The position numbers and the translations under genes are program-made. A stretch of DNA of 63,957 nucleotides, counting the filler, from Nemertoderma westbladi (Eukaryota > Animalia > Xenacoelomorpha), in assembly GCA_032718475.1 (NCBI GenBank). It is 3 parts of 3 records of this genome, joined end to end, with 100 filler letters (N's around TTAATTAATTAA, not from the genome) between each part and the next. Parts side by side here need not be neighbours in the genome. Positions count along the whole stretch, not along the records: positions 22,128 to 49,846 come from JAUCBJ010005290.1; 2 more parts are not named here. One strand, 5' to 3'. Below the pieces are notes generated by a model that saw only the letters and a list, made by a program, of their open reading frames with translations, made no database searches and was not told where the DNA came from. Numbering within the stretch: position 1 is the stretch's first letter; every line of letters begins with the position of its first letter. This document shows positions 7,542 to 46,796 of this stretch, one piece after another.

Positions 7542-7559
7542 TGGTAGCAGAGCGTGGTT
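7542..7559 (+). promoter_or_regulatory. Copia primer-binding site, complementary to the 3' end of initiator tRNA-Met
   Basis: TGGTAGCAGAGCGTGGTT abuts the LTR; TGGTAGCAGAG is the PBS typical of GalEa elements. Confidence 0.9.
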
Positions 7560-10900: not shown

Positions 10901-12575
10901 TAGTATTGCTATGGACACATCTAATAATAATATTAGCATAAATAACACTGGAGCTCTAGATGATAAAATGGATAAAAGTGGGTCTCTAGAAAGGCCACAC
11001 CGTAACCCTAAACCAATTGTAAGATATGGAATAGATGAGGTTTATGAACTATCTGATAGTTATATAACTACTGCTGAAAATAATAGTAAACGATTTGCAT
11101 ATGCAAAGGAAGATGAACTAATTTCTTGGCAACAACACGGCGTAATGAAGGAGGTTAAAGAAGAAGACATGACTAATCAGCCAATCTCTTGCAAGTGGGT
11201 ATTAACGGAAAAACAAGGAGCTACAGGATCAATAAGGTTAAAGGCAAGACTTGTAGCTCGTGGTTTCCAGGAGAACAAGTTGGATTTACAAACATACTCC
11301 CCAACATCCCACAGGGATACTCTCAAGCTCATTCTTGCTATTTTTCCATCACTTTGTTTTAGACCTCATTCCCTAGATGTTAAAACTGCTTTTTTGCAAA
11401 GTAAATCATTTGAACGAGATGTTTTTGTCGTTCCTCCACCTGAGGCTCATCTTTCTCCTAATATTTTTTGGAAATTGCTTAAACCAGTATATGGCTTGGT
11501 TGATGCTCCTAGAAACTGGTTTAATAGTTTATCAGAGGCACTTGTTAATCTTGGATTAAAGAAAAGTGACCTGGATCCCTCGTTGTTTGTGTATATAGTG
11601 AATGGTGAAATACATGGTTTAGTAACCATTCATGTAGATGATCTGTTGTATGGTGGTACAACTATATTCCATACAAAAATAATCAATAAATTAAAAGAAA
11701 TCTTTGTGGTAGCACCTTCAAAGAAAGACAATTTTGAGTATACCGGACTAGTGATAAATACAATTGACAGTGTTGATAACTCATTTAACATTCATGTACT
11801 TACAAAAGATGAATATTTAATGAAAATGGGTTTCATGGCTGTTCGGAAGGGAGAATTAGACTGCCCAATGTCAAAGGACGAAATAACAGAATTTCGCTCC
11901 ATTCTCGGTGTTCTTCAATGGGTTGGTTCACAAACACGTCCTGACATAATGTATGGAACATCTACATTATTGGGATCATTGAGAAATCCATTGGTAAAGC
12001 ATATTCAACAACTTAATAAGTTAATTCGCAAAGCAAAGTCATTGCAGCCAATTAAACTTGTATATCGGCCGTTAGATTTAAAGACATTATCTCTGATTAT
12101 TTATTCTGATTGTAGCTTTGGAGCCTTAAATGATGGGGGAAGTCAAGGGGGATTCATTGTTGGTCTCCATGGTCGATTAAGGAATTACGATGAGGTTAGA
12201 GTTAATACGTTAATGTGGAAGTCAAAACGTGTACAACGAGTAGTACGTTCTAGTTTTGCAGGGGAAACTCTTGCTGCACTTGACGGGTGCGATGCTGCGA
12301 TATACATAAAAGCCATGTTGCATGAACTCACATTGAAAATTGACTTTATGAAACTTCTGACAGACTCTAAAAGCTTAGTGGATCACATCTTATACACAAA
12401 GAATGATCCTGCAGAAAAGAAGTTAAAGATTGACCTAGCAATACTCCGTGAAGAAGCATTACAGGGACTAAGTGTTCAACATGTAACTGGAAAGAAACAA
12501 GCAGCTGATGTCCTAACAAAGGAGATGCCTGGTGAACAAATTTTAAATCTAATAACTGATGGAATTATTGAATAA
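7970..12575 (+). CDS. gag-pol: Copia Gag-Pol polyprotein with one extra T near 10670
   Basis: Knuckle CYGCGSRFH, protease IIDSAC, integrase LHINLGH...CEIC and SDNGGEF...NGICER, RT KARLVARGF / YGLVDAPRNWF / HVDD, RNase H TDSKSL / ADVLTK. Removing one T from the T5 run restores VFVRHGGFVINVH. Confidence 0.88.
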
Positions 12576-12695
12576 AAAAAAAATAATAATAATAAATAAA
12601 TGGAAAGGGGAATATTAGTCTATACTAGAATTTCATAAATGTGTGGTGGAGGTATTTTATGTATATAACTAACATATTAATTAAAGTAGAGTGAG

Positions 12696-12850
12696 TGTTA
12701 GAGGTATATTGTATAGGCCATGCCTTACAGGTGGAGGTCGGGGGGCAGCTCTAAGTATGTACCGGTAAGGTGATGATATATATATTTGTGTAGATTAAAG
12801 TAAAGTGTCAGACTTGTATGAACGTGTGTCGTGTATTTCAGTATTTAACA
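12696..12850 (+). repeat. Copia 3' LTR (155 bp)
   Basis: Direct repeat of 7394-7541, followed by TSD CTGAT. Confidence 0.95.
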
Positions 12851-13799
12851 CTGATGGTTTTGATTATAAGAACGTAAATCTATTATCTGACCTGGATCAC
12901 CGACATGCTGACTGACGAACTGAACACTGCATAATATAAACTGCATGAACCGGCTTGGAATTACATTGTTTAACACATACATTATTTTACTTCTGTTATT
13001 AATTGTTGTCATATTGATGTATATTGCTGATATATTTGGAGAATACCGATGAATAATCATAAAACCCCCAATCTTCTTGATTACTGAAGGTGAGAGGAAC
13101 AGGTTACCGGTAGCAACTGCGACTTACATTATAGTGGTTTTTGTGTGAATTAAATGCTACTTCATAATCCCTACAAGTGTCAGTTGCGATCTTCCTTATT
13201 TATATATGATCAAATTCAGTGACGGTCGGCAGATCAGTGTGCAGTAGTGTGAAGTCGTGTGAAGTAGTGTGAAAGATAATAAAGCATCTCCTAAAGAATG
13301 CGCTATTTACGAAACTCAGTAGCCATCTAGTTGTGATTAGTATAAGTCATAACTCTGTTTTTATACTTAAAGCGCCACGTCCTAAAGGAACTGTTAATAT
13401 TTCCCCGAAAGTAAATATATTTGTCAGAGATTATATAGTAACGATCAATCGAATAATACATATAGGTCTGCACCGCAATAACTTCAAAGCACCCGAATCC
13501 AGTCTCCCTTAACTGTGGGTGAATGATCGCGCACAGACTGGCTTCGGCGGATGTAACTTCAGTACAATAAATAATTGATATAGGCTAAAGTCGATTTATA
13601 AACAAGAGGACAACTAAAATTGGCAGGTTAAACTGCTAAAGGTCTAAAAGCGCGAACAGTTAATTAAATTACGAAAAAGTAAATTAATCAATCAAATAAG
13701 AATAATTAAAATATAAAACATATTTGCCCCATTCCGCAAGCTGAAACTTGTCAGATATGTGATAGAACACAATCCTGTGTCATTGTGGGGTCGGTAGTC

Positions 13800-15775: not shown

Positions 15776-17630
15776 GAAAATAACTGCTGAAACTTTCAAT
15801 ATTGGCAAAGTGCCGGACTGGCATGGTAAAAGAGGATCTATTAGGCCTATGTCAATATGTAGGCTACTTGGATTGGAAGCCCTTTCGCCTTACAAAGGCA
15901 AACTTAATTGTTAGCTAATAAAAAGAAACAGACATGTTGTACCGGTAATTGTTGTAGTACTAGTACCGGTACCGTACTGTCTGACTGTAGTACACTACTG
16001 TCAGACTGTCGTATACTTAGTAGAATAGGCCTACCGGTACTAAAATTGTAGGCCTAGCTATGTAATATAAAGGCCCAGGGGCCTACTGTGTCAGACTGTA
16101 TTTGGTCTCATTTCGCCATTGAGACGAAATCAAAACTACTTAGCTCCTTACAGCCTTAGTGCGTACTGTGCGTAATGTTGCCCGATCGGGCTACTTGAAA
16201 TAGCTACTTCTTCATTCATTAGGCTGTTAGCAGTTAGGCCTATTTCATTATCTGATTATTTTCTGTGAATTGCAATAATTGTATACTTACTTACTCTGTT
16301 ACTTGGTGAATATATTATACTTGTGAGTGTGACCTAGTCAGCTAGTCGAGTCATGTTTAGTTTAATAAGATATAATTTGTTTCAATTAGTCAGTTAGTGT
16401 TTCTATTACTGTATTAGGCCTACTGTATTACAGTATTCAGTCAGTCAGTATTACTGTATTATTGTTTCTATACTGCTATACAGCTATAGTGTTTTGGTGT
16501 AATAAAATAATTCAACTTCTACTTGTCTGCTTGTAATAGCAGAATCGCAGAATGAGAATACTTGAATATGCTGGGTCCTGGATGCAGTGATGGCTGTCAG
16601 GCTGTGGCTGATCACAGATCAGCTGATGGAATGCAGAATGATAGGCAGATAGCAGATAGACAGACTGACAGACAGGGTATACTGCCACACTACAATAGGG
16701 CCAAGGCATATCAGTATATAGGCTACCGTCTGACCATTAGCCGTAACCAAACCATGCTGACAACCAGTCTGCCAGTGGCTGAGTGGCGGCGCCAGTTGCC
16801 AGTCTGCCATTTAAAGCATAGGCCTTCTGTAATTACCGGTCCGACGAATCTGTACAAAAAAGTAGGCCTACAAAAAAATACAAAATAGTACAATATAGAG
16901 GCCTAGGGTGCCTAGTACAAAAGAGTACAATAAAGTGCAAAAATAGTACAAAAGAGTGCAAAAATAGTACAAACGAGTGAGGAACGCATACAAAACGTGT
17001 ATACCAGTGTAGTCGGCCTACAGTAGTATACACTACACTCAGACACTACACTGCTACACTTGTATACAAATATAATTAATTGTAAGCAAATGCAACGGCA
17101 CCGAAATATGCGCCGCTACAGTGTCAATCACTTGCGGTTGCGGCCTTGGTTCTGTGGTCAGTATGAAATGATTGACATAACTTTGATTCATGTAGATTTT
17201 GACAGGCATACAAGTAGAAATAGGCTCTACAGTTCGTATAGGCCTAAGAATACAATATAATAATGCTGTAATGCAATACATACTATGCAGTGGGTAGATA
17301 AAACTCCTATAACTGAGATTCAAAATTTAGGTCATAGTCTTAATCTTAAAGTAGCCCATATACTGAAGGATAGACTGTATGCTACATTATATGTAGGCTA
17401 TGTGTGTGTGTACGCATCCAGCCTCTATCAGCAACTTTATTGAGTTCTCCCTCTGCAATTTTGCGGACTTGGGACCGTTTTTTGAACACAAAAAGCTGCA
17501 TTAAAACACAGCTAGATCAGCCCCCGCTCAATGCATGGCTCGCCCCACAATCAGACAATGCTTTGTTTTATTTTGCACATCATGCTGTCATGTGCGCCCC
17601 TCTAAATGATTTGAACTACACTTGGATACA

Positions 17631-18815
17631 TGTTCGCGCTTTTGAAGACCTTTAGCAGTTTAACCTGCCAAAATTTATATGTCTTTTAGTTAATTAAAAC
17701 ACCTTTAGCATACGACAATATTTTATGCTAATAAACAAAACATTAACCGAAGCCAGCCCATGCGCGATCATTCACCCGATGGATCTACACCCGGGAGGCT
17801 GAATTCGGCTGCTTAAATTTTATTATTGCAGTGTAAGGTTGCAGTGTAAACCTATTGTATTATTCGATAGATCGTTAATAATTAATTTCTGACAGATATT
17901 ATTTGCTTTCGGGAAATATTAACAGTTCCTTTAGGACGTGGCGCTCTATCTATTTAAACAGAACTAGGACTTATACTAAACGCAACGATACCGCTTAGGA
18001 TTAAAGTATAAGGCACATTCTTTAGGAAATGCTTTGTTACCAATCACAATCATGCACACTATTCTGCCGACCGTCAGTAAATTTGATCACACATAAAGAG
18101 AGCAGCAATTGACTCATGTAGGGTCTGCTAAATAACATTAGATTCAATACACACCACATTAATATAAATCGCAATTGTTATGTATAGCCTGTCTCTCTAA
18201 CCTGTAGTGTATCAAGAAAATTTGGAATTTTGGGTGATTTATCCGTATTCTCCAAAGAGCAATATTTCCTCAACAAATCGATACAATTAATAACTGACGG
18301 TAAATAACAGTACAAACAATATAATTAATAAGTAAAGTTCGGGAGAATTATATGATTAATAACAGTTATACTTTCGATAATTTAAGCAGTTTTACTAGAG
18401 TTCTTCCCAAAAGCCGGTGTTATGGCGAAAAATGGGAACACAACAACAGAATCATATGAAGAATCATATGACTACATAACTATACGAGGATACCAACTAC
18501 CCTTATTCCCCGAAGCTCCCGTCCAACACAGAGGATGAGCAGTGAGATAGGAAAATTCAGTTCAGTAGCTCTGGGATAGGTCAAAATCCACGCCCACTCA
18601 AATTCTATTGGCCGATACGGACAGCAAGGCTGAGGCAACCTCCCTAAGCTGGTTGGCCGATTAAACGGAGCCCAGATACCTTCGTACAGCACATCAGCCA
18701 ATAAGCTGGTAGCTTGCACTATTTTAACTATAGATCCCTTTTAGAGTATTCTAGCGACCGGGGGGGAACTGGCCAGCAAGGCAAACGAATCAGTTATCCC
18801 ACAAAAGCTTTTACA
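17631..18815 (-). repeat. 3' LTR of BEL copy B (1185 bp)
   Basis: Plus strand reads TGTTCGCGCTTTT...AAAAGCTTTTACA, the reverse complement of the family termini. Confidence 0.92.
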
Positions 18816-22027: not shown

Positions 22028-22127
22028 NNNNNNNNNNNNNNNNNNNNNNNNNNNNNNNNNNNNNNNNNNNNTTAATTAATTAANNNNNNNNNNNNNNNNN
22101 NNNNNNNNNNNNNNNNNNNNNNNNNNN
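22028..22127. other. Assembly gap with artificial TTAATTAATTAA spacer
   Basis: 100 nt of N with a central six-frame-stop linker, identical in design to the second gap. Confidence 0.97.
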
Positions 22128-25599: not shown

Positions 25600-26650
25600 T
25601 GCTACTACTAGGATCGGCATGCTGCATTGCAGCTGCATTTTTAAGAATGCTGTGCGGGCTTATCGACAAAATTGCACCGCCACAACTCCCTATCACCCAT
25701 GACATTAGCTAGATCATCCGCATCTTCAAGGCCAGTGTCCTTTAAGATGCGTCTCAAGAAAGTCATGGGCTGTCCACCATGCTTATTCAATCCATGAGGC
25801 TGCCAAAGTACAAGATTATGCACTGGCTGGTCCTCACGACGAAAGCAATGTCCTGCAAAGCGGAGGCGATTTTGTTCTAGTGTCAAGCTTGGGGGAACCA
25901 ATGAGAAACCTCCAATGTTATATAGTGTCTGGTTGGAGATGTGTGCATTGTACTTGATACAATGAACCCGGCGTAGCATTCTTGTGAATGTGCCATCCAG
26001 AGATTTGGTGTCCTCAGCAGTTAGAGCCCAGCATGGACTCCTATAGAGGAGTACTGGAACTACTGCTGCTCTAAATAATCGGACCTTAAGTTTCCGATTA
26101 ATTCTCGGTGACTTCCAAATTCTGGAAAGCCTATTCAAGGCTGCCCATGCCTTTCCCTTACGTACCGGTATTCGAAGGTCCTCACCTGACTTCCGGATCC
26201 ATGATCCCAGGTAACAGAAGTCATCCACATGCTCAAGCATACCATCTTTTGAGCTTATGCTCATCCGATCAGAGACTTGCTGAGGACTTTCAAAGTTAAC
26301 TGTCAAAATTTTGGTCTTTCTGGAGTTAATAAAAAGACTAATACTACTAGAAGCAGCATGTTCTAATGAGCTGAGGAGCCGTTGGGCTCCCTCTAGTGAT
26401 TCTGAGAGTACTCCTAAGTCATCAGCAAAGTCTAGATCAGGATTTGGCAGGATTTCCTCGACTTCTGGAGCCAGTACAGCAGTAGGTGGAGTTATCATCA
26501 CCCCATCATCATTATGATGATCTAAGGACATGCGTAAAACATAGTCAACATCAACAACAATTACGAACAAGAATGGTGCAAGTGTGTCTCCCTGGAAGAC
26601 GCCCCATAACACTTCAAATGGTTCTGTGTCACCGTCAACAGTAGACACAA
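25600..26650 (-). pseudogene. RTE LINE 3' portion (same family as 812-2153)
   Basis: GVFQGDTLAPFLF, DFADD, FCYLGS, RLRFAGHCFR, DRELWR. Short 3' UTR ending in (TAG)n-like repeats. Confidence 0.9.
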
Positions 26651-26687
26651 TCATGACATTCTCCTACATAAATTGAGATGCATTGGC

Positions 26688-27843
26688 TGTAAAAGCTTTT
26701 GTGGGATATAACTGGCCCTTTTGCTTCACAATCCAGTTTCCCTCAATGCGCTCAAATACTCTAAAGAAAAACTCCCTAACTCAAATGATGCAAGCTACCG
26801 GCTGATTGGCTGATTTGCTGTACGTATGGCCTCTTTGTTCTGTTCGATCAACCAACCAGAGCAAGGTCAACCAAGCAGAGTGATTCATCCTGTGTGTTGG
26901 CTAAGGGCTGCAAAAACCCGAATAGTTCGGCATTTAGACATTCGTGGAATCTGTGGAATATGGAGCTCTGCCAATGAGAGCTTTTCCTCTTTGTGTTGAA
27001 AGCTACCTGCAACAGCTCACAGGGTTCAGTGTGTTGGTTTTTCCAGAGCCTAGAACATCGGCTATGAAATTATTCTGAATTATTCCAACATTAGAACGGC
27101 TTTACACATAAAGAACACATAACTGTTACCAGTACGGTACGGTACCTACTGCTGTATTGCACATTATTTACTGCTATTTACTGTTTGTTATTAATTGTAT
27201 CAGTTGTTTACATATTGTTATTTGGAGAATAACGATAAACGATCAGAAACCCCGATCTTCTTGATACACTAAGGTTAGAGAGACCGGTTACATATAGCAA
27301 TTGCGACTTATATTATCATGGTTTGTAGTGAATTGAATGCTATTTTATAGGCCCTACAAATGTCGGTTGCTATTCTCTTTATATATGATTAAAATCAGTG
27401 ACTATCGGCAATTCAGTGTGCAGCGGTGTGCAATAGTCTGTATGTGCTTGTCCGCGTAACAAAGCATCTACTAAAGAATGCGCCTTATGTGTAACTTATA
27501 ATCCATTCCGTTGTGTTTAGTGTAAGCCATAGCTCTGTTTATATAGATAGAGCGCCACGTCCTAAAGGAACTGCTAATATTTCCCGAAAGTGAATGATAT
27601 TTGTCAGGAATTATATTAACGATCAATCGAATAGTACAGTAGGCCTGCACCGCAATCAAATTAAAGCATCCGAATCCAGTCTCCCGGGTATATCCAGCGG
27701 GTGAATGGTCGCGCATAGACTGGCTTCGGCTAATGTTGGATTTATTTGTGTCAAATACTTGTCATAGGTTAAAGTCGATTTATAACCTAGAAGACATATA
27801 GATTTGGCGGGTTAAACTGCCAAAGGTCTTAAAAGCGCGAACA
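26688..27843 (+). repeat. 5' LTR of BEL copy C (1156 bp)
   Basis: TG...CA termini; direct repeat of 38531-39694. Confidence 0.96.
27119..27129 (+). promoter_or_regulatory. Putative transcript 5' end / self-primer (ATAACTGTTAC)
   Basis: Exact reverse complement of 27844-27854. Starts at the A of a C-A dinucleotide (YR initiator-like). The TSS assignment is inferred. Confidence 0.7.
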
Positions 27844-27854
27844 GTAACAGTTAT
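27844..27854 (+). promoter_or_regulatory. Non-tRNA primer-binding site (GTAACAGTTAT)
   Basis: Abuts the LTR, lacks TGG, and is complementary to 27119-27129. Confidence 0.75.
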
Positions 27855-28187
27855 TAACTCTGATTGCAGTGTAGGCAATAAATACAGTTTACTATTGTTC
27901 TGGTAAGAACAATAACAGATATAGCTTCTGTATTGCAGTAGGCAATAAAGCTGAAGTACCGGTTAACCGGTACCTAGTAGGCCTGACTACCTAACCACCC
28001 GGACCGGTACCTACAGCAGTACAGGTACAGCAGTGTTATTCGAATGTGAAATTGTATACCGGTAGGCTGTTTAAGAGATTAGGGACTGTACACCCCTTGT
28101 TTCTTTTGGAGCTTACTTATTTCTGTCAGTTTTATTTACTTGTAGGTTAATATTGAGCAGAAGACGTGTAAGCCTGCCCAGATTGTA

Positions 28188-28768
28188 CAGACAATTTGTA
28201 GGCTGGACTGTTGTCTGACTGTTGTTAAGTCTGAAGGGACTGTAGTGTGTGTAGAGCGTATGTCCGAAAAAGTACTAGTTAGGAAAGTAGGGGCTGCCAG
28301 TGCTGTGAGGTGAACCCCCTCGAAAGAATAAGTCGTACTACTCGGTTAGAACGCATACTAACTAACCATTTCGGAGTCTGCATATACTGTAGTTTATTTA
28401 GGCTTGATAGTAGTCTGCCAGCGTTTGGTCTGTATTTTGTATGTGTAGTCTGTACGGGTAGCGTAATATTTATTACTTAGATAATTTGTAGGCTGGATTT
28501 TGTCTGGCTGTTGTTAGGTCTGAAGAGATTTCGGTATGTGTAGAGTGTATGTCCGATAAAGTGCCAGTTGGGAACGTAGGGGCTTCCAGAGCTGTGAGGT
28601 AAACCCCCTCGAAAGAATAAGTCGTACTACTCGGTTAGAACGCATACTAACTAACCATTTCGGAGTGTGCATATACCGTAGTTTGTTTAGGCTTGATAGT
28701 AGTCTGTCAGTATTTGGTCTGCATTTTGTTTGAGTAGTCTGTACGCGTAGCGTAATATTTATTATTCA
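28188..28768. repeat. Tandem duplication (~290-bp unit x2) in the BEL 5' leader; also at ~47104-47678
   Basis: AGAYAATTTGTAGGCTG...GTAGCGTAATATTTATT is repeated in both copies C and D. Confidence 0.85.
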
Positions 28769-29162
28769 GAGTTTATGTGATTATTCGCAACCTTCATATA
28801 TCCCCAAGTTTATTCCTACAGTAATTGTGCTTGTTATATATACCGTTATAGTTAAACTAACCCCGGTACTACATCAGGGCTGCTTGGCGTAGGTAAAGAC
28901 TGGTGATTTTGTGCCCCGGTCACTCCAGCAGATACCGTGGTTCTTTTAGCTGTTCAAGTATTTTTAACTACTGATTATTTGTTGTATAAGTACTTGTACC
29001 TAATTTAGGGTTTAGTGTACAGTACTTTCCGAAGGTGATTAGTGTGTGGGCAGTATATTTGTGTTGTAAAGTGGTTAATAGGCACGTTGGTTCTGGTAGA
29101 CCGCGGTAATTAACTTCTAGGTAGGAACACTCCGTGATACATAACGTGGTACTTATAGCGAT

Positions 29163-29501
29163 AGTACGAATTTTTACGGTAATTTTACAAGAAGTCTACA
29201 AACCAGCCTAACAAAGGGTTAGAATATCTGGTTATTACAAAGGACAGGGTACTACGGTATTTGAAAATAATAAGTAGTAGTAAATATACTGCGTTGTCCA
29301 GATAGGAAAAATACCACCGTCTGACAACGCTATAAGTCGTCAGACGGTGGTATTTTTCCTATCTGGACAACGCAGTATATTTACTACTACTTATTATTTT
29401 CAAATACCGTAGTACCCTGTCCTTTGTAATAACCAGATATTCTAACCCTTTGTTAGGCTGGTTTGTAGACTTCTTGTAAAATTACCCTAAAAATTCGTAC
29501 T
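29163..29501. repeat. Near-perfect inverted repeat (~163-bp arms, 13-nt spacer)
   Basis: 29163-29325 is the reverse complement of 29339-29501, with one mismatch seen. Copy D has only one arm. Confidence 0.95.
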
Positions 29502-29714
29502 TGTAATTTTTGTGTTTATTTAGAGATTGTAATCTCACCCGAATTGTATGTAATTTGTAGTATTAAGTAACTTAGGTAAATTAGAATTATTTGTTTTAGT
29601 GTCCAACAAGTAGCACTCCACTGAGAGCGCACAGCTTCTGTGTAGTGACTTCCCCCAGAAATAATAACATTTATTTCAAATATTGACAAAAACCCATTTT
29701 AACGGGTATATATA

Positions 29715-30024
29715 CTAGAGACGGCGTCAAGATGCCGTTAAGCAAGTCGGAAGTCATCAATCAAATGTAAATTCCATCAACAAGCTGTCATTGGTGTTAT
29801 TTTACCATTGCGCCTATGGCGTTTTTTTCATTTATGTCTATTTTTCGAGCCCACGGCTCATGGACGAAATAGCGGAACATACCAGGGACCTTAGAATCGT
29901 GGTATCTAGCCGCTGTGAAAATTTCATCAAAATCGTTAGAGTAGTTTTGGCTGTAGATCAGTCAGTCAGCCAGCCAGCCAGTCAGCCAACAATTCTTACA
30001 GTAATCAAGTCCTACGACTTGCTA
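29715..30024 (-). mobile_element. Small HINE/DINE-like non-autonomous rolling-circle element
   Basis: Absent from copy D. CTAG terminus next to hairpin GACGGCGTC-AA-GATGCCGTT. Subterminal IR AGCAAGTCG/CGACTTGCT. Internal (CAGY)n microsatellite. Confidence 0.7.
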
Positions 30025-30698
30025 ATTATAAATCAACTCAAACCGATTTATAAAATAGTAGGCCTGTCTTACAACAATTAGGTCAAAATATCAGTTGGAC
30101 TACTGCTTAAATAACGGTAATCAAGAAAAGCAAAGTAACCAAGTAACCCCTAAAATTTCAGAAATTCAATTATTCTAAAATAATTGACATACCGGTATTT
30201 ACCATAGGCTTATTATATTTATTTCTATAAATTTAGGCTAAATTATATACCGGTATTCTGTAATTAATTCTAGTCTGTAATTATACTTCTATATATACAT
30301 TATAAGTGTAAGCTGTATACCGGTATTCACGATAGGCCTATTATATATTTATAAATTTAGGCTGAAATTATACCGGTATTCTGTAATTAATTCTAGTTAA
30401 TAATTATACTTATATATACTATAAGTGTAAGCTGTATACCAGTATTCACGATAGGCCTATTATATATATTTATATATTTGTGCTAAAATTATATACTGGT
30501 ATTCTGTGACAAATCTAGTCTGTGACAATACTTATATATATATATTATAAGCATACCGGTATTCTAATATATTATATATATATTACGCTACACTGAGTAG
30601 CAGTATCGGTAATTAATTACTAAGCTAACAGTGATACTGAATTACTAGACTTGCTTAAACTGTAATAGAGCAGTAGGCATTCAACTGTACAAACAAAC

Positions 30699-33600
30699 AT
30701 GTCTGACACAAAGCAAAACCTGTCAGACAGTCTCCTAGATACAACCATCTGTGACCCAGACAGGAGTGTGGAACGTGTGAGACCGAAGTTCAACTCACCT
30801 CCTACTGTAAGAAAGATCATCCCTCCAGTAGTAATATCAGACCCTAGGCTAGTCCAACACCGTAGGTCTGTCATAGGCACTAGAGCTCAGGTCAAGCAGG
30901 ACCAAGAAGCAGTGGAACAGCAACAACCCGCGAGCCAAGAACTTGTTTCTCAGCGGCCCGACAGCTCCAGTAGTGCGGATACTGTAGAGCTGACACCCGA
31001 GCACGGAGCAAAGATGACAGATGCGGTTTATTCGGACCACCTTCTCATCCTTCCTGCAGCCGTACTCACTAGGTTATTGATTGCGGTGGAAGAACACCAG
31101 ATCGATTGGGCGAGAAATAAGCGATCGACTAAAGATAGTTATGCGGGATACACAAGGGAAGAACTGAAGTCTATTGTCGAGTCGCAATGGAACTTCCCCG
31201 GACCCGGACTCCCGTTTGATTTATCAGAAGCTGCCTGGGAAGACATACACAGGATGGGAGTAATCAAGGAAACCATCGATCCAGCTGTGTGGAAGAGGTC
31301 CGCAGCCGGATACGTACAGGGATTCTTCAGCTCCATGGAGCGATTAGAAGAACAATTGTTTAGACAATCACAAGGACCTCAAGAGCAGGGAGAACTGCTT
31401 TATCAAGTTCGAGAAAGAATTCTAAGAATCAGACTAATCCTATCGGCCTTTGAGGAGGCTTCGAAAAGAAAACAGGACACGTCGTTGCAAGTTGCCGTAA
31501 AAACTTGGTTACAGCGGGTGAGTCTCCAAGTTCAAAGAACTGCCCCGTGGAAATCTCAGTTAGCGGAGCGCTCAACCCTTGGAGAATCCACAGACGCCAC
31601 ATTTTCCCAAGTGGAAAGTGAAGCGACGGTGGAGAAACCGCATAAGAGGGATGCTATTGACATCTATCTGTCGGACTATCAACGTTTTGTATGAGATGAA
31701 GAGTTGAGGAGAAGACTAGATGGACTTAGCCCTAATAGTGAAGGAGCCAAGCTTGTGTTGGACGCAATCGATGTGGATAGGTTAGCTGCGAACCAAGCTA
31801 AATTCAATGAAAGCATCCGCATCGCTAAGGTTCAAGAAGTACAAGTAAAGAAAAAACGTATAGAAGATAGAAAGACAGCAGCAGCGGCAGTGGCAGCGGC
31901 CGAAGCGGAAAGAAAGCTAGCAGTGGCAGAAGCAGAACGGAGGGCATCTGAAGAGACAACCCAACTAGAGTTGGAAAATCTTCAAGAGAGGCAAGACAAC
32001 TTCAATAAACAGTTAACAGCTAGTAATATGCAGATGATGAGTCGATCTACTCCCAAAAGACAGGGATATACATCATCTGAGGAAGGCGATACCATCGATA
32101 CTGAAGGCGGAGGAAATAGATCTCGTCTAAGCAGACGTAGAAGAATATCCCACCGTCAGAAATTGCCTGATTTGCCCCCAGCTGTTAGAAGGCAACTAAA
32201 TAACACAAACTTAGGTAGTACAGAACCCACAGACCAAATAATTAAAATAGAAAGACTCCCTACTATAGTAGATGAGCCTGAAATAATTAGGCCTGTTCCC
32301 GAAGCCACCCCTTCGGTGATAGAGACACCTGTACTCCCTGAACCTACCTCTAAATTCCCTCTGCACAGCACTAAGCTATCTGTGCCCCACAGAACCACCC
32401 TTGAAAATGTTCATGTCCTGGACTCCGAGCGAAATATTAATGATTTGTCGCCCGTTGTCCCTCGTCCGCCCGCTACAACGTTGGCGCCTCCCGCTTCGGC
32501 GGTCGAGTGGGTAGATGAGGGACGACGGGAGATGGGTCTCCTGCTCGGGCAGTTGAGGGAACACCGTTCCCGCTCCTCTCAGCAAGTCCAGGAGATGGAG
32601 GGGACTGTGCAGCAGTTAAAGGGAACAGTTAGAGAGAGTAGGTTAGAGTTGCAAGAAGTGCAGCAAAGTATCGCGTTAGAACGCGATAAATTAGTAAATA
32701 CACAAAAGGGTATACCACCACCCCCTGTAACAATGTGTCAACCTGTTAGGTCTGAAGTATTTCATGCGCAAGGTGTGGAGCCTACACGCATCTATACTGC
32801 TAGCGAAGTGGAAACTCCTATAGTAAACCCTATTAAGGGTAATTATAAACCTGTTGACAATGATATTCCATATAGACTTGATAATAATCCGAGAAATTTA
32901 TATACCGATAATTCGATATTAAATAACACGATGGCCCAAGAAAGTTTTACGCGTCAAATGGCTAGAACCGAAGCCCGTCAAGCAGTAAAGGTGGGAGAGA
33001 TCGTCAAGTTCAATGGAGATGAGATGAAATGGTTACCTTTTAATGAATATTACAAAGATAATGTACAGAACTCTGTGCTATCTAACGGAGAGAAACTTAG
33101 ATTCCTTATCGAGTGCTTGGAAGGATCTCCCAAGTTAATGGCGTTAAAGTTTATTGGACATCCAGATGGATTAAGACAAGTTTGGGATACACTGAACATC
33201 AGGTATGGTAATAGGACTAACATAGCTAGGTATTTATATGCGAAATTAATGGCGCCCCGAAAGTTTCTTAGCAGCAGGATTATAGAGTTTTCCTACGAGA
33301 TTCAGGAGATCTGTAGACAACTAGATTGGTTAGGTAAGTCTCATGAATACCAGAATTCTATGGTTGTAGGAGCCTTAGCATCTAATTTGCCCAAGGGCGG
33401 AGTAGGTACACGCTGGGACAAGACAGTGTTATATATGATGGAACAACAACGAAGAGATCCTACCATGGCTGATCTCATGTCATTCTTAGATGGAGAGGTA
33501 AAATTACAGCTCCTAAAGCAGTCCAGAGAGAAGACACCGGAAAACAAGGTAAGTGAGAAACCCGTTTCTAGGAGAAAGGTAATACCAGTGTGTTATACAG

Positions 33601-35272
33601 ACGACGGCGAAAGCCAGGCTTCTCAAGAGGAAGACAGCGGGAAAGACACTGAAAGATCTTACTATGACAACAAAGCGCCTAAGGACGTAAGTAAATTCAA
33701 GTCTCGAACCAATGACAGGAGAGAACAGGTAAGAAAAACTCCTCCTACGTCTCCTAAGAGAATTCATGTAAGAAAGCCCGAAGAAAGAACGAGTGTGCAC
33801 AACGTTACTCAAAGTAAGGTAAGTAACATCAAACCAAAATGTGTGCTGTGCGACGGGCCCCCCGTTTAAGTGCGTGTGATGAATTCCTGAGGAAATCACT
33901 AAAGGACAGACGTGAAGTCATGTGGGATAAGCGGTTGTGTTATAATTGCCTCAGACGAGGACACCAACGGCGAACCTGTTACTCCGACGCAAGGTGTGCA
34001 AAGTGCGGCGCAAAACATCATATCTTGTTGCACACTGAATTCGATCGAAACAGCCCGAGTCAGGTAAGTGAGTCCGAACTACATGTCCAATTCAGTGATG
34101 TGAACGACACTGACCAAAGTTCTGAGATTGAAGGATTCTATACGGACGAATTCTCCGACGAAGATGAATCCTGTTACATGATAAATACCGCAGTGTATCG
34201 AGCACTTACGTATGAAAAAGATACAAACAGCGAGCTCACCCTAACTACTTCTGATCGACAACCATCTTGGAAAGCACCAACTTCCAATGTAGGAATCCGA
34301 GAATTTCCCGTAGTGCAGTTAAGGGTCCACGGACCTAAAAGGAGTTATATAGTGAACGCCCTCCTTGACTCCGGTAGCACAGGAACATTCATCGACAAAG
34401 AACTAGCCGAAGACATCTTTGCTGGACAACCCAAGTTCCGAACTAAGTTAATCATGTCAGGAATTATGCAGGTTTGGAAATCTACAGTAATAGCGGATTA
34501 TTATGTAGGTGCGTTGTCCACCCCCCAGGATGAACTAGGAGAACATAGTATAAGGTCAGTAAAAATGGTGGCGATAAAGAACTTCGCTACCAGCCAAGTA
34601 GAACCTTATAACTGGGATGAGGACGATTCCACCCAGCAGCTTAATGTACCTAGATTCAACACAGATTACCCTGGAGTGCAAATACTCATCGGCCAAAATG
34701 CGCATGAAGCGCTTGAGACATTGGAGAAACGGCCTGCTCAACCGCAACCATTACAAGTCTATGCGGGAAGAACTAGAGTGGGTTGGTACTTTACTGGCCC
34801 TTCCCGTAGAACTCTCATGGAAAGATTACCGAAAGAACAGGTATATCAATTAAGTGAACGGGCAGTGGAGAGCAGTGAAGTTGACAACCCAACTGAGGGA
34901 ACACCATACTCCTCAGATAATGACGATATCAACTCCAATGTAGATCAATGGAGACATTGCCCCGAGACGATTAATCTAGCCGACATCGCTTCCAGAGGAG
35001 CAACTCCTCAAGAACTGATAGACACTCCAGCGTGGTTAGGTGGACCTGACTTCCTAAGTAAAGAAGATGAATGGCCGCCTCCTCATCTTACCCCGGCTAA
35101 GATTAGACAGACCAAGGGAGCGGAGAAAGTAACACAACAACTCAATCGCCCAGCTGGTCGTTTATGTTTACTGGAAAGAAACCGAAAACTGTCCGGAAAC
35201 TATGGAAAGCAAGATACTCTTCCCACGACCACCTCCCTAATCCAACAAATATCTAGGGACTCCATAACGTAA
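30699..35272 (+). pseudogene. gag-pol: BEL/Pao gag-protease fused to RNase H and integrase tail remnants; in-frame TGA at 31692, 1-nt frameshift near 33860, RT deleted
   Basis: Gag core KFNGDEMKWLPF...EKLRFLIECLEG...WDTLNIRYG. Three knuckles: CVLC, CYNCLRRGHQRRTC, CAKCGAKHHILLH. Protease ALLDSGS. Then QWRHCP..NLADIASRG and RPAGRLCLLE. Confidence 0.9.
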
Positions 35273-36929
35273 CAACATACGGAGTGGGTGTGTGACTATA
35301 TTATTTTATATTTATTTCTATTATTTTATATTATGTATGTATTATTATGTAATTTCATTATAATCGTTTTCTTTAATTTTATTTAGTAGAATGTTATTTT
35401 AGCGATTATTTAGTAGATTAGTGCAATATATTAGCGTTTATTACTTAATTACCTGTATATTATATATTTAGTGCGACGGCGAGAAATAATTCTTTTTCTC
35501 TTTCCTTACTGTCCGTATTACATTATAAATACGTGACTACAGTAAGATGAAATCTCCGTACTTATTAAAGTACAATAAAGCTCCTACTATATTTAAGTAT
35601 TATTGGTAGGCAGAGTATTAGGAATGCAAAGTTCAGATCCTCGTGTCTCGGCTAAACCAAGCTCTGGGTAGACCTTGGAAACGACTTGCCTCTTCACACT
35701 GACATTGCTTCGTGCGATATTGCTCTCATACCGTATATTAAATAATACATATAGTAGCGTGATGTCCCATTAACAGTAGCGTAAAACGCAAAATAAATCT
35801 GTTAAACCCTTTGACCATCTGCAATTCTAGTCGATTAAGATATCGCGGCACCCACCGATATACTTGAAAGACAAATTTCTAGAATCAGTGGTTAACGTCC
35901 CCAGACTTGTTCTGGAATAAACCGGTGCCCATCCCAAATATTAACTATTAATATTTATAAAATCCGTCAAATTTCAGATCCTTTAACATTCTAGTCGATT
36001 AAGATATCGTAGCACTTACCGATACTCTTAAAAAGACAAAATTCCTAGAATCAAGGATCCCAGTCCCCAGACTTGTTCTGGAATAAAATTGTGTCTATTT
36101 TAATATTAAATAATAAAATTACGGGAATAAATTTAAATTCATCTTTTAATGAATTTGATAAATTGTTATTTTATACAATTTATAATATTCCCAAAATTCC
36201 ATTAATTAATAGATCATGGGAGCGGAGATTCACCTATTAAGTGTATTAGTGTGCGAGAATCTCCAATATAGAGTCAATAGCCGATAAAATTCATAAAATC
36301 ATGTATCAAGATGATATTGACCATTAAAGACTTACTATTAAATAGCATCCCAGATCTGTATGCATGGGAATTACCCTAATTCTACCGCTAGCTTTCCATA
36401 ATGTCACCATAGCAACAACCACGCTAGAATTAGAAGCGAGTTAACAGAACAATAAAAAGCTTGCTCATTGAATAGCATACGGAATAAATAGCACACCGCT
36501 AGTATCCAAGGATACATAATAACAACGTGACATTCTGGAAGGCACTTGACTAACGGATAAATGACCCGAATGTGTGATAGAATGTGTGCCATTTGTGACA
36601 GTTACGTGGAATTTGTGCGTTTGTAGGTGAATGTTACTACTAAGGTGTGTTTACAGTAGCGAGTCGCAATTGTGAAAGTAGCCCTAACTCTCCAGTAAGA
36701 ACCTGAAGTATATCTAAGCCTTTGGGACGGACGGTGGAGTGACTCGTGCTGGTTGTTGTAGTCGTTGTGCAGCTACGACGTTGGCGATAGGCACATCGGC
36801 GAAAGTACACCAGCGCTGAGGATCTCGCACTGTCCGGGGGCAGAGAGGGGTAGGCAGCGATGCCCGCTCGCCTAAATATAAACTCATTATATAACCTTAT
36901 ATAAACTTAGATAAACTTATATAGCAGAT

Positions 36930-38452
36930 ATGATTGAGTTGATAGAAGATGATCTTGGTATCAGGGAGCGATATACTCTACCTTTACAAGCGTTTGTTGA
37001 TAGCTTGATACGCGGCGACGCTGGTCCAACTACTACGGAGGACGATGGTCGTTATATCTAACCGCCAATGTCCTGGGAGCAACTTGCGCGTGGGTTGGAC
37101 TGTAGAAAATTCACCGCTCGCTATACGCATCGTAATGGTACGTATATGGACTTCTTAACTACTGGTCATCCTATCGACCTACACGATACGAACGATATAG
37201 ACACCAAAAGGGAAATGGTTTTATTTAAATATCATACCCAGCGGAAGCGGAACGATAAACTGAGACTCGAGCACTAAAATTCTATTCGAAACCGACTCGA
37301 AAGTGCAGATGTTGAAGAGCCGGATAAACGCAGCGACTTCACCAAATACCTGGAATTCTTGAGAGAAACCTATCTCGATATTACCAGTCAACAGAATCTA
37401 GAAACTCGATATCCTCAAGGTATACATCATGACCGCATGGTAGAACTCAAATGGCTCTATTCCACTATGATGTATCTTACCGCCGATCGACCGCTACCTG
37501 TTGTACCGGATAGCTTCGAACAGATGGAGGAATATTGTAAGCTGGAGAAAGATCACTCGCGTTTCCCCTACAAGACGTGCGTCTTTGGTATTATTGCGAT
37601 GAATGCCCTAGACCCAACCAACAAACGGAAAGACCTAAACATCCGCGGAGACGTTGCACTAAACACGGTTTTACTCGCTATACTTATGGGAGTTTCGAGC
37701 GAAATTTGTTTGACGTATCACCTACGCTCGTTCGACTCAGACGATCCTTAAATAAACCAATGATCAGAGTTTCGGAATACTCGATCAGACCTCCTCATTC
37801 CCTAGTGAGACCTCAGGCTCTTAATCCTATTAGTATGACGGATCCTCCCGAGCTGTACTCACTGTTCAAAGATCTAGTGTTACCTGAACAATTAGTCGGT
37901 GGCACCCCGGTTGTGGGCTTCCTAGATATTAGCCCATCCTACCTAGCCGGATTGGGACGCGGACATTTAATATCGCCGTTTAACTCTTACCATCGTCCCG
38001 GCTTAACACGATATAACCTGTCACCAAAGTGGCGGAGAGCGTTGTACCAAATGAGTTAGACGCTATTCTACAAAGATCAGAAAAGGAACTTACGCTTGTT
38101 CAGATAAACGTAAATTGCACTAGCAAGTCCAAGCGGTAAACAAAGTAACTTTATCTCAGTTCGATCGGGAAATCCAGAATCTCTAAGAAGTTATCGAACT
38201 TGGACGACCCTATTCTCTGCGAGAGTTTTTGGATGAACGTATCCAGCTACGAGCGGAGGAAAATCAGCTCGAGGAGAAGCATATCGAAACGGCGGATACC
38301 CCGACCATAATCCTACACCTTTTCATGCAATCATATTGCACCCTTCACCCAGGAGTTATAGCCCTCCTAGTAAAGTGGCTCCCCCCAAAGAGAAAAGGAC
38401 TCTTGCTAGCTTTAAAAAACTGCGTAAACGCCGTCCACGCAAGACAGACTAA
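36930..38452 (+). pseudogene. Extra ORF type A in copy C, degraded, with an internal deletion near 38289
   Basis: Homologous to 4769-6977, with several stops and frameshifts. Confidence 0.85.
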
Positions 38453-38530
38453 CTGTTTAGAGTATTTTTATATTTTAGAAACTGTGATTTTTTATATTTT
38501 ATAGAATTAAATCCCATTTTCTGGGAGCGG

Positions 38531-39694
38531 TGTAAAAGCTTTTGTGGGATATAACTGGCCCTTTCTTTTGCTTCGCAATCCAGTTTCCCTCAATGCGCTC
38601 AAATACTCTAAAGAAAAACTCCCTAACTCAAATGATGCAAGCTACCGGCTGATTGGCTGATTTGCTGTACGTATGGCCTCTTTGTTCTGTTCGATCAACC
38701 AACCAGAGCAAGGTCAACCAAGCAGAGTGATTCATCCTGTGTGTTGGCTAAGGGCTGCAAAAACCCGAATAGTTCGGCATTTAGACATTCGTGGAATCTG
38801 TGGAATATGGAGCTCTGCCAATGAGAGCTTTTCCTCTTTGTGTTGAAAGCTACCTGCAACAGCTCACAGGGTTCAGTGTGTTGGTTTTTCCAGAGCCTAG
38901 AACATCAGCTATGGAATTATTCTGAATTATTCCAACATTAGAACGGCTTTAATTATAAGAACACATAACTGTTACCGGTACGGTACGGTACGGTACCTAC
39001 TGCTGTATTGCACATTATTTACTGCTATTTACTGTTTGTTATTAATTGTATCAGTTGTTTACATATTGTTATTTGGAGAATAACGATAAACGATCAGAAA
39101 CCCCGATCTTCTTGATACACTAAGGTTAGAGAGACCGGTTACATATAGCAATTGCGACTTATATTATCGTGGTTTGTAGTGAATTGAATGCTATTTTATA
39201 GGCCCTACAAATGTCGGTTGCTATTCTCTTTATATATGATTAAAATCAGTGACTATCGGCAATTCAGTGTGCAGCGGTGTGCAATAGTCTGTATGTGCTT
39301 GTCCGCGTAACAAAGCATCTCCTAAAGAATGCGCCTTATGTGTAACTTATAATCCATTCCGTTGTGTTTAGTGTAAGCCATAGCTCTGTTTATATAGATA
39401 GAGCGCCACGTCCTAAAGGAACTGCTAATATTTCCCGAAAGTGAATGATATTTGTCAGGAATTATATTAACGATCAATCGAATAGTACGGTAGGCCTGCA
39501 CCGCAATCAAATTAAAGCATCCGAATCCAGTCTCCCGGGTATATCCAGAGGGTGAATGGTCGCGCATAGACTGGCTTCGGCTAATGTTGGATTTAATTGT
39601 GTCAAATACTTGTCATAGGCTAAAGTCGATTTATAACCTAGAAGACATATAGATTTGGCGGGTTAAACTGCCAAAGGTCTTAAAAGCGCGAACA
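38531..39694 (+). repeat. 3' LTR of BEL copy C (1164 bp)
   Basis: Direct repeat of the 5' LTR, preceded by GGGAGCGG. Confidence 0.96.
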
Positions 39695-42110: not shown

Positions 42111-42980
42111 CAACAGATGTTATAGTTGCCACAACGGGGAAACAATTATACGATTATACGAAAAATAATTACATTAATGCAGCTTTTTGTGTTTTACTTT
42201 CATGAAGAACACAAAAAACGGTGCCAAGCCCGTATAAATGCAGAGGCTCATCTATCAACCACGCTATTTTACACGTATATGATATACAATGGACATCATT
42301 ATGTATAAAGTAGCGCTTTATTTATACGGGGGGGGGGGGGGGGGGGGCTGAAAGCAATTGGAGAATTGATATCTCGTTTCAATGGTAAAGCATCAAATTA
42401 AGGGAGAGGAGCTAGTTAAACTGCTACGTTATTCTAACCAAAACAATAAACTAATGTCAATCGAACATGGTTAAGGTATTAGTTTTGGAAGTAATCAGTT
42501 GTTATTTCTGTAAATATCGTTTGTATCGAAAGACCCCCCTATTTAAAGTACTGTATACTTAGTTATCTAAATAAAAAGTATTTATTGTTGGGTGTTGTAG
42601 TTAAAGTTGCCGCCCTCTGGAAACAATCGCCACTACGATGTTATAGTTGCCCAAACGGAAGAAACAATCGCCACTACGGAGGATATAGTTGCCACAACGG
42701 AGGAAACAATCGCCACAACGGGGGACACAATCGCCACAACGGGGGACACAATCGCCACAACAGATGTTATACTGTATTTGCTACAACGGAGAAACAATTA
42801 TACGATTATATGAAATAATAATTACAGTAATGCAGCTTTTTGTGTTTTACATTCATGAAGAACACAAAAAACGGTGCCAAGCCCGTATAAATGCAGAGGC
42901 TCATCTATCAACCACGCTATTTTACACGTATATGATATACAATGGACATCATTATGTACAGTATAAAGTAGCGCTTTATC
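42111..42980. repeat. ~215-bp direct duplication (42111-42325 and 42759-42980) plus AATCGCCACAACGG array (42620-42760); possibly a MULE terminus
   Basis: The repeats are seen directly. The link to the adjacent MULE is inference. Confidence 0.7.
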
Positions 42981-43459: not shown

Positions 43460-44560
43460 CTGAAAATAAATCATCTTTGTATTATGCGGGTGCGCTCGCT
43501 TTTGGGACGTTTGCGTTGTTGGGGTTTTTTTGCAGTTCCTTTTCTTCTAGGCATCGTGAATATTTTATCTTTTGAAAATATTACTTCGGATTCCCCTTTA
43601 GGTTGACCAGATCCACTACATGGTAGTCGCTTATCGCTTATGGATAAAGTCCATTACCAGCTTATCTTTTTGGGCTTCAGTTTTCTGCAAGTTTCAGTTT
43701 TCAGTATTCTTATCGAATACTGGGTACTTTGTTAAAAAGGGCATAAGCTCGAATAAACGAGTATTGAACGTATGTTCATCACAACTTTTTGCAATACCAT
43801 TCGGACCGAATATAATACCTATGATAGCATTGCGTTCGTCCCCATCGCAGCCAACTTTATTAATTAGGTATCGACTTATATCGTCTTTGAGATGTTTACT
43901 ACAAATAATGTTAGTTGCAGACGGAAAAGCAACTCTAATTGCTTTCGTCAAACCCTTTTCCTGATCGCTTCCTATTCTAACTTCCACTGTCCTAGCATCG
44001 GTGGTTAGTTTCGTCTTTATATGTGAAAGAAATGGAAAATATGTATTAAATTCGCCGTCCCAATGTAGAAGCATGGGTCCCAAAAAAATGGGAATTTCTG
44101 AATTTTCTTTGCGCGCTAAAGCTTGATTTTTATACACTAAAGTAGTAACAAAAACTGGACCTAAATTAAATGTCCGATCTATTCCTATAATACTCGCGCT
44201 GTTTCTTTTAAAGTCTTCCAGTTGTTTCTCTGTGTATAGAATAACACTGGGTGGCTTATTTTTTTGATGTATTATTTCCTGAACAAAAGGATCGCTATGA
44301 ATGGATGAGATAACACTTAATACATCATCAGCCAAATTGCTTGATACCTGTTCGCATTTCTTTTCAACAAGTTTTCTTTTATTGTTGTATTTTTTGTTGC
44401 GTATTTGGCGAAAGTCTCTCGGCACCTCCATCGAATTATCATGAACCATCATAGATAGATAAAATTGGTCTACATATTACGCTACAAGCAGCTGCCATAG
44501 TCCAGCTGCTTGAAAATGAACCATCTTTCGCACAGTCTGTTATTGTCTTTTCATATCTTT
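43460..44560 (-). pseudogene. MULE (Mutator) DDE transposase fragment
   Basis: IGIDRTFNLG...PIFLGPMLLH...GSDQEKGLTKAIRVAFP...CSKH (D, D, CxxH). The basic C-terminus is joined after an internal deletion. Confidence 0.85.
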
Positions 44561-45545: not shown

Positions 45546-46010
45546 TGTAAAAGCCTTTGCTGAATTGCCCCGTTATTTTTATTATCTTTTACATTAAAAT
45601 ACTCTGTAGTTGATTTAATAAGTGTAAGAGACCGTATTATTGCTGTATCGGTGTTTTTAGAGGATCTAAGACCTATTTCCTCCGTATGTGTACTGTGAAA
45701 GGCATATTTTATGATTCTATGGCAATTCGTGACGCAAAGGGGTGATAGCTACTCTTGAACAGTAGTTACTATGACTACGGTTAACAGCTGACATTCATAC
45801 GTGTTGATTTCCTTTGTTCTACGGCGTCTCTCAGTTCAGTCAGCCAATTAGAGCGTTTTTGTGGCTCCTTGTACAGAAAATTTCCGAGAAATGACGCAAT
45901 GCCTATGTGCAGTGTTTACATTCAGTCTTGAGCCAAAGAAAGAACGGCTTGGAAGTATTTTGTGCTTACTGTTTTTAGTCTTACACTAGTAGGTTTAATT
46001 ATAAAGGGCA

Positions 46011-46022
46011 TATATCCTTTAA
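46011..46022 (+). promoter_or_regulatory. Putative self-primer of copy D (TATATCCTTTAA)
   Basis: Exact reverse complement of 46785-46796, at the position homologous to 27119-27129. Confidence 0.7.
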
Positions 46023-46784
46023 CTGACATATCTGCTACCTAAGATACTGCTACGATCATACATCCTGACTGCTGAAACATTGCAAACTCTAACAATCAGT
46101 GTTCAGTTGTTGTTTTATACTGCTATTTACTGTCAGTTCTTCATAATATGGTTGATGAATTATTATATTTGGAATAACGATAAATAACCCCGAAACCCAA
46201 TATTCTTGATATACCGAAGGTAAGAGAGAAAGGTTACCAGATAAACGATTGTGACTTATGTTAAAGTGGTTTGAAGTGAATCTAATGTTATTTGATAGAC
46301 CCTACATGAGTCAGTCTGTGTTCCTTTTATATGTGACTAAAATCAGTGAAGATTGGCAGATTAGTGTGCAGTATTGTGCAGCATTGTGTATGAGTGAGTC
46401 TGTTAAAGAAGCAATTCCTAAAGAATGCGCCATATATGTGAATTATAATTAAGCCATATCGTTGTGAGTAGTTTAAGTCATAACTCTGTTTATATAGATA
46501 AAGCGCCACGTCCTAAAGGAACTGTTAATATTACCGAAGGTGAATAATATTGTCAGAGATTATATAATACTGTCAGTCGAATAATACATTAGGCTTACAT
46601 AGCAATAAAATTAAACCGTCGAACCCAATCTCCCGGGAATATCCAGCGGGTGAATGGTCGCGCACGGATTGGTTTCGACTAGTGTAGTGAATCAAATACT
46701 TGTCATAGACTAAAAGCAGATTTAATATCTAGAAGACATCTTAATTTGGTGGGTTAAACTGCCAAAGGTCTGAAAGCGCGAACA

Positions 46785-46796
46785 TTAAAGGATATA
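46785..46796 (+). promoter_or_regulatory. Non-tRNA PBS of copy D (TTAAAGGATATA)
   Basis: Abuts the LTR end and is complementary to 46011-46022. Confidence 0.75.

Follow-up and report, generated by a model that had tools for sequence, protein, structure and literature searches.

BEL/Pao elements, which make up one of three large groups into which LTR retrotransposons fall, are described as tRNA-primed: the ICTV account gives them an 18-nt primer binding site (PBS) for tRNA-Arg or tRNA-Gly, a genome of 4.2-10 kb and a mode of replication that is poorly understood (PMC8742986). As far as the accessible parts of the respective papers go, self-priming has been demonstrated for Tf1/Tf2 (PMC7175516; PMC5341516), release of the Tf1 primer by RNase H cleavage provides a precedent (PMC7175516), and the PBS of about half of the Tf1 cDNA is copied from the primer (PMC11042837). 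Similarly, the accessible sections of further sources predict self-priming from complementarity between PBS and LTR for Tf1/sushi, Tcn1 and TAR/Houba (PMC6317226) and propose an unexplained self-priming variant for Skipper (PMC5006619). For BEL/Pao itself, the accessible text of two papers contains no mention of primers (PMC3118150; PMC554778), and the corresponding portions of three others add nothing further on priming (PMC3601003, PMC13524379, PMC8220671). A search of the full-text literature, with most subscription papers lying outside it, returned no paper on a self-priming BEL/Pao element or on an internal primer guide in the text it covers; supplements and Repbase PBS tables could bear on this point. 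A nematode BEL element is reported to encode its own tRNA-like primer.

The window analyzed here, a stretch of 63,957 nt from Nemertoderma westbladi, contains six LTRs of one family that we classify from its sequence as non-autonomous BEL/Pao. Copy C (26688-39694, plus strand) is a whole element of 13.0 kb without reverse transcriptase (RT) or integrase. It is flanked at both ends by the 5-bp target duplication TTGGC, its 5′ LTR (26688-27843, plus strand, 1156 nt) and 3′ LTR (38531-39694, plus strand) have TG...CA termini and are 98% identical, and a polypurine tract (38523-38530, plus strand) adjoins the 3′ LTR. The remaining copies are represented by the 5′ LTR of copy D (45546-46784, plus strand); by LTR A (1-811, plus strand), which is truncated at the window start; by LTR B (12692-13658, plus strand), the downstream part of a 3′ LTR split by a copia insertion; and by the 3′ LTR Bm (17631-18815, minus strand). 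A profile search with the LTR region revealed no seventh copy within the window. Roughly the first 400 nt of the LTR are diverged between copies, and the remainder is 70-89% identical between subfamilies. Assembly gaps at 22028-22127 and 49847-49946 (N runs flanking a 12-base spacer) truncate copies Bm and D, respectively.

Other repeats are interspersed with the family. The copia-type element (7541-12692; integrase followed by RT_2; ORFs 7811-10714 and 10668-12575) lies inside the 3′ LTR of copy B. The 2.8-kb leader of copy C contains a 166-bp, 99% perfect hairpin (29163-29501), one arm only of which is found in copy D, as well as 289-bp and ~123-bp repeats. Non-LTR-type RT fragments at 975-2156 (plus strand) and 25641-26663 (minus strand), 90% alike across 385 nt, adjoin BEL/Pao copies. 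At 50326-56649, 961-bp inverted repeats (99.6%) enclose a 791-aa ORF (51364-53739, minus strand) without a clear Pfam family; this is an unclassified DNA transposon-like element. A weak MULE transposase match (E 0.003) was seen at 43694-44476 (minus strand), and three twister-P1 matches (17445-17507, minus strand; 42171-42251 and 42824-42904, plus strand; E ~1e-8, under the Rfam gathering score) lie outside the BEL/Pao LTRs.

The sequence-only reading had assigned the protein motifs to BEL/Pao, and domain searches and homologues bear this out, though RT is absent from all copies. In copy C, a gag with one internal stop (30669-33869, plus strand) matches DUF1759 (Pfam, E 1.2e-11), and a second stretch (33827-35272, plus strand) encodes zinc knuckles and a protease fused to an RNase H fragment, with the RT deleted; DUF5641 was matched in copy B (Pfam, E 1.4e-21). 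The best 62 protein matches are BEL/Pao polyproteins with 22-62% identity over partial coverage, PF05380 or PF03564 being listed in at least 60 of the 62; among 1.84 billion representatives, no protein was found at E 1e-30 or better. Six BEL/Pao polyproteins aligned to the window match the protease, a short RNase H piece and the integrase C-terminus, and detect no BEL RT in any copy within it. The domain order is protease before RNase H in copy C, from which the integrase piece is missing, and RNase H before integrase in copy B. The family thus shares with Belpaoviridae (Semotivirus) the DUF1759 Gag, the triple Cys-His knuckles, the protease and the RNase H and integrase pieces, together with the TG...CA LTRs, the 5-bp target duplication and the polypurine tract. 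It differs from the ICTV description (18-nt tRNA PBS, 4.2-10 kb; PMC8742986) in its length, in the deletion of RT from every copy and in the want of a tRNA-Arg/tRNA-Gly site, TGG being absent from both of the two PBSs. A quick tree of the integrase C-terminus left the family unplaced on a long branch; alignment of the BEL proteins against viral contigs gave no match, nor did two exact LTR motifs in viral or metagenome contigs. Past the integrase region, extra reading frames at 5223-7466 and 37062-38504, broken by stops and without a Pfam family, are possibly an accessory or envelope-like gene.

Both readable PBSs of the window, those of copies C and D, are complementary to the LTR that precedes them. 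The PBS of copy C (27844-27854, plus strand) abuts the LTR at offset 0 and is the exact complement of 27119-27129 (plus strand), which we number nt +1 to +11, with a predicted primer 3′ end at 27129. That of copy D, a 12-mer (46785-46796, plus strand) likewise at offset 0, is the exact complement of 46011-46022. The two LTR sites can be aligned in register, with differences at 4 of 11 positions that are compensated in every case, and neither 5′ LTR is followed by TGG. These observations of the sequence-only reading all held. Dinucleotide shuffles of the LTR produced such a match at offset 0 in 2/5000 (C) and 1/5000 (D) trials, and at any offset from 0 to 5 in 20/5000 and 7/5000. Each PBS suits its own LTR alone (best cross matches of 8 and 7 nt), and for the LTRs that are followed by flanking DNA in place of a PBS (C 3′ LTR, A, B and Bm) the match to their own LTR is only 4-6 nt long. 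The three PBSs that the sequence-only reading predicted for the truncated copies follow none of the LTRs in the window.

The wider claim of tRNA-independent self-priming in BEL/Pao is well supported by the sequence and recurs in the distant relatives described below; one part that changes is the weight of the PBS covariation. This is probably automatic, a footprint of priming rather than selected compensation, since synthesis of the plus strand would rewrite the PBS from the primer, as reported for Tf1. A local duplication in copy C (27855-27930), which some public contigs skip, made a second PBS-like copy (27912-27922, plus strand); this relic has two mismatches to the LTR site of copy C, which would be expected if rewriting from the primer affects the copy next to the LTR alone. 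Public contigs hint at a PBS variant with one extra base, with no matching site variant among the matches listed, in which differences at contig ends are hidden. An 8-nt match between the PBS of copy C and an invariant LTR block was dropped, as it shows no covariation.

The stronger and newer feature, missed by the sequence-only reading, is a clamp of three helices on the primer strand, which is common to all six LTRs. In copy C (all features on the plus strand), guide arm 1 (27456-27461) is the complement of nt +6 to +11, guide arm 2 (27485-27492) that of nt -4 to +4 (27115-27122), and guide arm 3 (27662-27667) that of nt -20 to -15 (27099-27104). The first helix is paired in 36/36 cells with 3/6 pairs changed on both sides, the second in 47/48 cells with 5/8 pairs changed, and the third in 36/36 cells with 4/6 pairs changed. 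Arms 1 and 2 recur, together with the 11-mer site (38965-38975), at 39307-39312 and 39336-39343 in the C 3′ LTR. The equivalent positions (site, then the two arms) are 46012-46022, 46403-46408 and 46432-46439 in D; 42-52, 431-436 and 460-467 in A; 12876-12886, 13276-13281 and 13305-13312 in B; and 18359-18369, 18035-18040 and 18004-18011 in Bm.

The arm 1 helix was found by joint folding of five LTR copies and was the sole fully paired window among 516 tested. The arm 2 helix was found by a scan, as nt +1 to +4 with 27485-27488, and was extended by aligner-free anchoring, by which it reaches nt -3 in all six LTRs and nt -4 in five of them; the arm 3 helix emerged once upstream DNA had been added. 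When the 327 helices that are paired in each of the five subfamily copies were scanned without bias, the highest numbers of covarying columns, 5, 4 and 3, belonged to the three primer-strand helices; among the others, one had two covarying columns, 29 had one and 294 had none. Pooled over six LTRs, 119/120 cells are paired and 12/20 pairs are changed on both sides, with the LTRs amounting to five independent ones and the independent events to fewer than the cells (the two LTRs of C are almost copies of each other, and A is 89% similar to D). The pooled score was matched by 0/500 shuffles, which ignore relatedness, and slid partner controls pair at 27-49%. No fourth clamp helix stood out upstream of nt -20 in 14,148 tests. 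The three wobble cells are all of the G-U kind on the plus strand, a sign of pairing that would take place at the RNA level. Because no copying step links or can write these arms, the clamp pairs are selected.

The clamp lies inside the conserved 700-nt downstream region of the LTR, and its geometry bears on the primer end. The arm 1 helix ends at the predicted primer 3′ end, namely at nt +11 in copy C; D, A and B each have an additional pair, and Bm has a continuous helix. The other two helices reach 4 and 20 nt upstream of the 11-mer. Since nt -4 to -1 and -20 to -15 sit in covarying helices, the upstream bases must be part of the RNA, either through a transcription start further upstream or through formation of the clamp on the 3′ LTR copy. 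Contrary to the sequence-only reading, the primer would not necessarily consist of the first 11 nt of the transcript. In all four DNA runs, public contigs track the C 3′ LTR from about -31 as far as +10, past which they diverge. Arms 1 and 2 are separated by a near-invariant 23-nt insert (27462-27484, plus strand) that is predicted to pair with 27552-27575 or to form its own hairpin; 27552-27575 (plus strand) is the most conserved block of the LTR, nearly invariant and without covariation. The computed binding of the cut strand is ~-12 kcal/mol to the PBS versus -3 to -5 to the core. Folding of the whole leader predicted primer:PBS pairing in D (p near 1) and its absence in C (p near 0), and guide pairing in neither C nor D. 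In none of five window copies is the guide duplex energy better than that of shuffles (p<=0.05).

Further RNA features accompany the clamp. A predicted spliceosomal intron (27274-27607, plus strand) contains arms 1 and 2, with an AG/GT[AGT]AG donor and a YTGTCAG acceptor in 6/6 LTRs; this stretch is kept in every LTR, and therefore the RNA that is copied would be unspliced there. Beside a poly(A)-like hexamer, the segment 27644-27659 (plus strand) is complementary to 27861-27876 right after the PBS, a pairing seen in two copies, C and D (46593-46609 with 46802-46816 in D). Lying next to or over the hexamer, it could stop premature polyadenylation in the 5′ LTR only. A covarying stem (27670-27729, plus strand; 27670-27682 with 27717-27729) presents a loop segment, 27709-27714, that is complementary to the LTR end at 27835-27840, and this pairing is invariant.

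Distant relatives were sought with an alignment of 17 BEL/Pao polyproteins, which retrieved 79 metagenome loci; a profile of the window LTR region matched none of the 79. Forty-five had at least 150 nt of upstream DNA and were searched, with primers split by an intron allowed: 17 were used, three were near-copies of these, two were of the tRNA type and 23 were placed in no class. Selection of the 17 relatives, for a self-complementary PBS, combined searching with inspection by eye; their LTR ends are mostly inferred from the match itself, and two of them (L007 and L008) are one family. With this selection, 14/17 have a PBS that matches an LTR site, contiguous or spliced, over 11-15 nt; in the other three, the first exon is off the contig or misassigned, and L032, for which the donor was wrongly chosen (an 18-nt intron), is counted as a miss. 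Among the families with an LTR end fixed by both copies of the LTR (L026/L027, L051, L072 and L053), the PBS is self-complementary in 3/4 and a TGG site in 1/4; L001, with old LTRs, adds an 11-nt PBS match. L072 and L076, one family, have LTRs with and without the primer-splitting intron, the 3′ LTR of L072 being intron-less. L053 and L049, within the same set, carry a TGG-type PBS 5 nt past the LTR: this group of BEL/Pao elements contains both modes of priming.

An internal guide that bulges by one base opposite the predicted cut (three pairs after the cut, one unpaired guide base, two pairs before it) was present in 14/17 relatives versus 4.5 expected (P ~7e-7, for a motif defined post hoc). 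Versions with a bulge of zero or two bases occur at chance level (4/17 and 5/17), and some of the 14 matches are due to chance as well. In terms of duplex energy, the guide outperforms shuffles (p<=0.05) in 5/17. These data make it likely that the clamp has a counterpart in distant relatives. The bulge motif itself is not general in the window family, because among the window copies the bulge is found in copy C only.

Set against described systems, the family resembles Tf1/Tf2 and Tf1/sushi (Ty3/gypsy), according to the accessible parts of the sources, in having an 11-nt PBS complementary to the LTR, no tRNA site and candidate extra duplexes on both sides of the PBS (PMC7175516; bioRxiv 10.1101/2022.12.06.519325). 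The candidates for such flanking duplexes are the invariant loop-to-LTR-end pairing and the post-PBS pairing of two copies. Unlike the Tf1 group, the window family is BEL/Pao and does not have the Pol of a Ty3/gypsy chromovirus. Its primer and PBS are ~715-760 nt apart, and its three covarying helices compete with the PBS, two of them extending upstream of the 11-mer; the accessible Tf1 texts describe no such guide. With the plant elements Tcn1 (Ty3/gypsy) and TAR/Houba/Osr-1 (Ty1/copia), the family has in common that self-priming is inferred from PBS-LTR complementarity; these belong to other superfamilies, and the parts of the source at hand report no internal guide for them (PMC6317226). 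As judged from these comparisons, the family resembles Tf1 in outline, stands outside the Tf1 group and adds a selected three-helix clamp.

Taken together, these results argue for self-priming of some form, to which we assign a probability of about 0.9. The version we favor, at somewhat short of even odds, is that the primer would be the element's own LTR RNA, cut after nt +11 at a point that the pairings would mark. Its observed part comprises the complementarity of the PBS, the clamp of three helices and the end of these at nt +11/+12; the remaining steps, which we infer, would run as follows. Transcription would start at least 20 nt upstream of 27119, making the primer the 3′ end of an RNA of at least 30 nt, and the downstream LTR RNA would fold round nt -20 to +11 while being made. 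A protein, most likely the RNase H of the RT of an autonomous helper element, would cut the 5′ copy after nt +11, and the PBS-side pairings, being present at the 5′ end only, would confine the cut to that copy. The cut end would then shift to the PBS, the more stable duplex, and prime the minus strand flush with the LTR end. Finally, the plus strand would copy the primer into the PBS, so that both would stay matched as subfamilies diverge. The position of the helices suggests that an RNA guide, rather than the PBS duplex, may fix the primer end.

The reading that fares next best, which we consider unlikely, adheres strictly to Tf1: transcription would start at +1, an 11-nt primer would be released by RT cutting in the primer:PBS duplex, and the clamp would guard the 3′ copy, where U3 supplies nt -20 to -1 at the RNA 3′ end, by barring it from pairing with the PBS or from being cut. 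Consistent with such a start, the PBS pairing ends at nt +1 in copy C and at nt -1 in copy D, and a pyrimidine-A step occupies -1/+1 in 6/6 LTRs. In 5/6 LTRs, a poly(A)-like hexamer near +540 to +600 would place every arm in R, and candidate duplexes flank the PBS in the manner of the Tf1 'pretzel' in the accessible text of that work (bioRxiv 10.1101/2022.12.06.519325). Against it, the six LTRs share no TATA box ~30 nt before +1; in the relatives, a splice junction falls within the primer, and the guide is paired with bases of exon 1 that precede the stretch matching the PBS; and a decoy role leaves the bulge opposite the cut unexplained.

Slightly less probable still is that the primer derives from the LTR copy at the 3′ end, or else from a short LTR transcript made separately, with the clamp setting its 3′ end at +11 and the 5′ copy remaining uncut and sequestered. 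This would account for a clamp that spans nt -20 to +11 and for intron retention in the relatives whose primer is built by splicing, and in several relatives a poly(A) hexamer, as judged by eye, follows shortly after the primer end. It is at odds with the window family, in which no common poly(A) hexamer was found upstream of +11; moreover, the 5′ copy must evade the same cut, and if priming occurred in trans, subfamilies would tend to become mixed, contrary to the fit of each PBS to its own LTR.

We also considered that the downstream LTR RNA might itself be the nuclease. Group I and group II intron ribozymes bind their substrates through short covarying guides that end at a cut leaving a 3′-OH; group II introns possess a domain 5 with a catalytic triad and have EBS2 upstream of EBS1. 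By analogy, the LTR would encode a large RNA of an undescribed class, in which three interchangeable arms bind a 31-nt stretch and hydrolysis after +11 leaves a 3′-OH primer; on the sequence evidence this is improbable, more so than either of the preceding alternatives. What speaks for it is a substrate-like mode of binding (6+8+6 bp) with free choice of sequence and crossing helices, and the near-invariant core between arms 1 and 2. Contig cover of the LTR is deepest on this core in all four runs, with the peak over 27536-27597, the contigs coming from three studies of one organism plus a few under a second organism label, with depth not equal to copy number. The clamp layout is reminiscent of group II EBS/IBS pairing, and the A-rich loop of group I J4/5. 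Mapping onto either class was nevertheless rejected: a group II intron by the want of an Rfam match and of a D5 signature and by the order of the arms, arm 1 being upstream of arm 2 and so differing from EBS2-EBS1; a group I intron, with its P3-P7 core and U-G at the cut, by the want of an Rfam match, the variable last pair (C-G, A-U, U-A or U-G) and the absence of a covarying P7-like partner among the listed helices. Rfam returned no family at E<=1 in any LTR of the window, and the folding z-scores of the core are weak (-0.7 to -2.9). None of the relatives matches the window RNA, and some retain the guide with only ~50 nt between primer and LTR end, a distance too small for a large ribozyme.

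Priming by a host tRNA, tRNA half or other host RNA, the match to the LTR being incidental, is very improbable despite the tRNA-Arg or tRNA-Gly priming of BEL/Pao in the ICTV account (PMC8742986) and the TGG-type site of two related loci, as there is no TGG here, two distinct PBSs are each matched by their own LTR at a site common to both, that site is under selected pairing, and the pattern recurs in relatives.

The favored reading, a primer cut from the element's own LTR RNA under the direction of a guide, has consequences at several levels. The clamp yields exact predictions, namely a 3′ end at 27129, three named helices and, in the relatives, a bulge opposite the cut. Should the RNA prove to cut without protein, it would represent a new ribozyme class with programmable arms, one that makes the primer of an LTR retrotransposon in an animal. 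A non-tRNA primer would be free to vary between subfamilies and, going by the accessible literature on the subject, would evade the silencing of the PBS by host tRNA fragments. If true, self-priming in BEL/Pao would mean that a mechanism tested only in fission yeast has arisen independently, and would account for the many BEL/Pao copies without a tRNA site.
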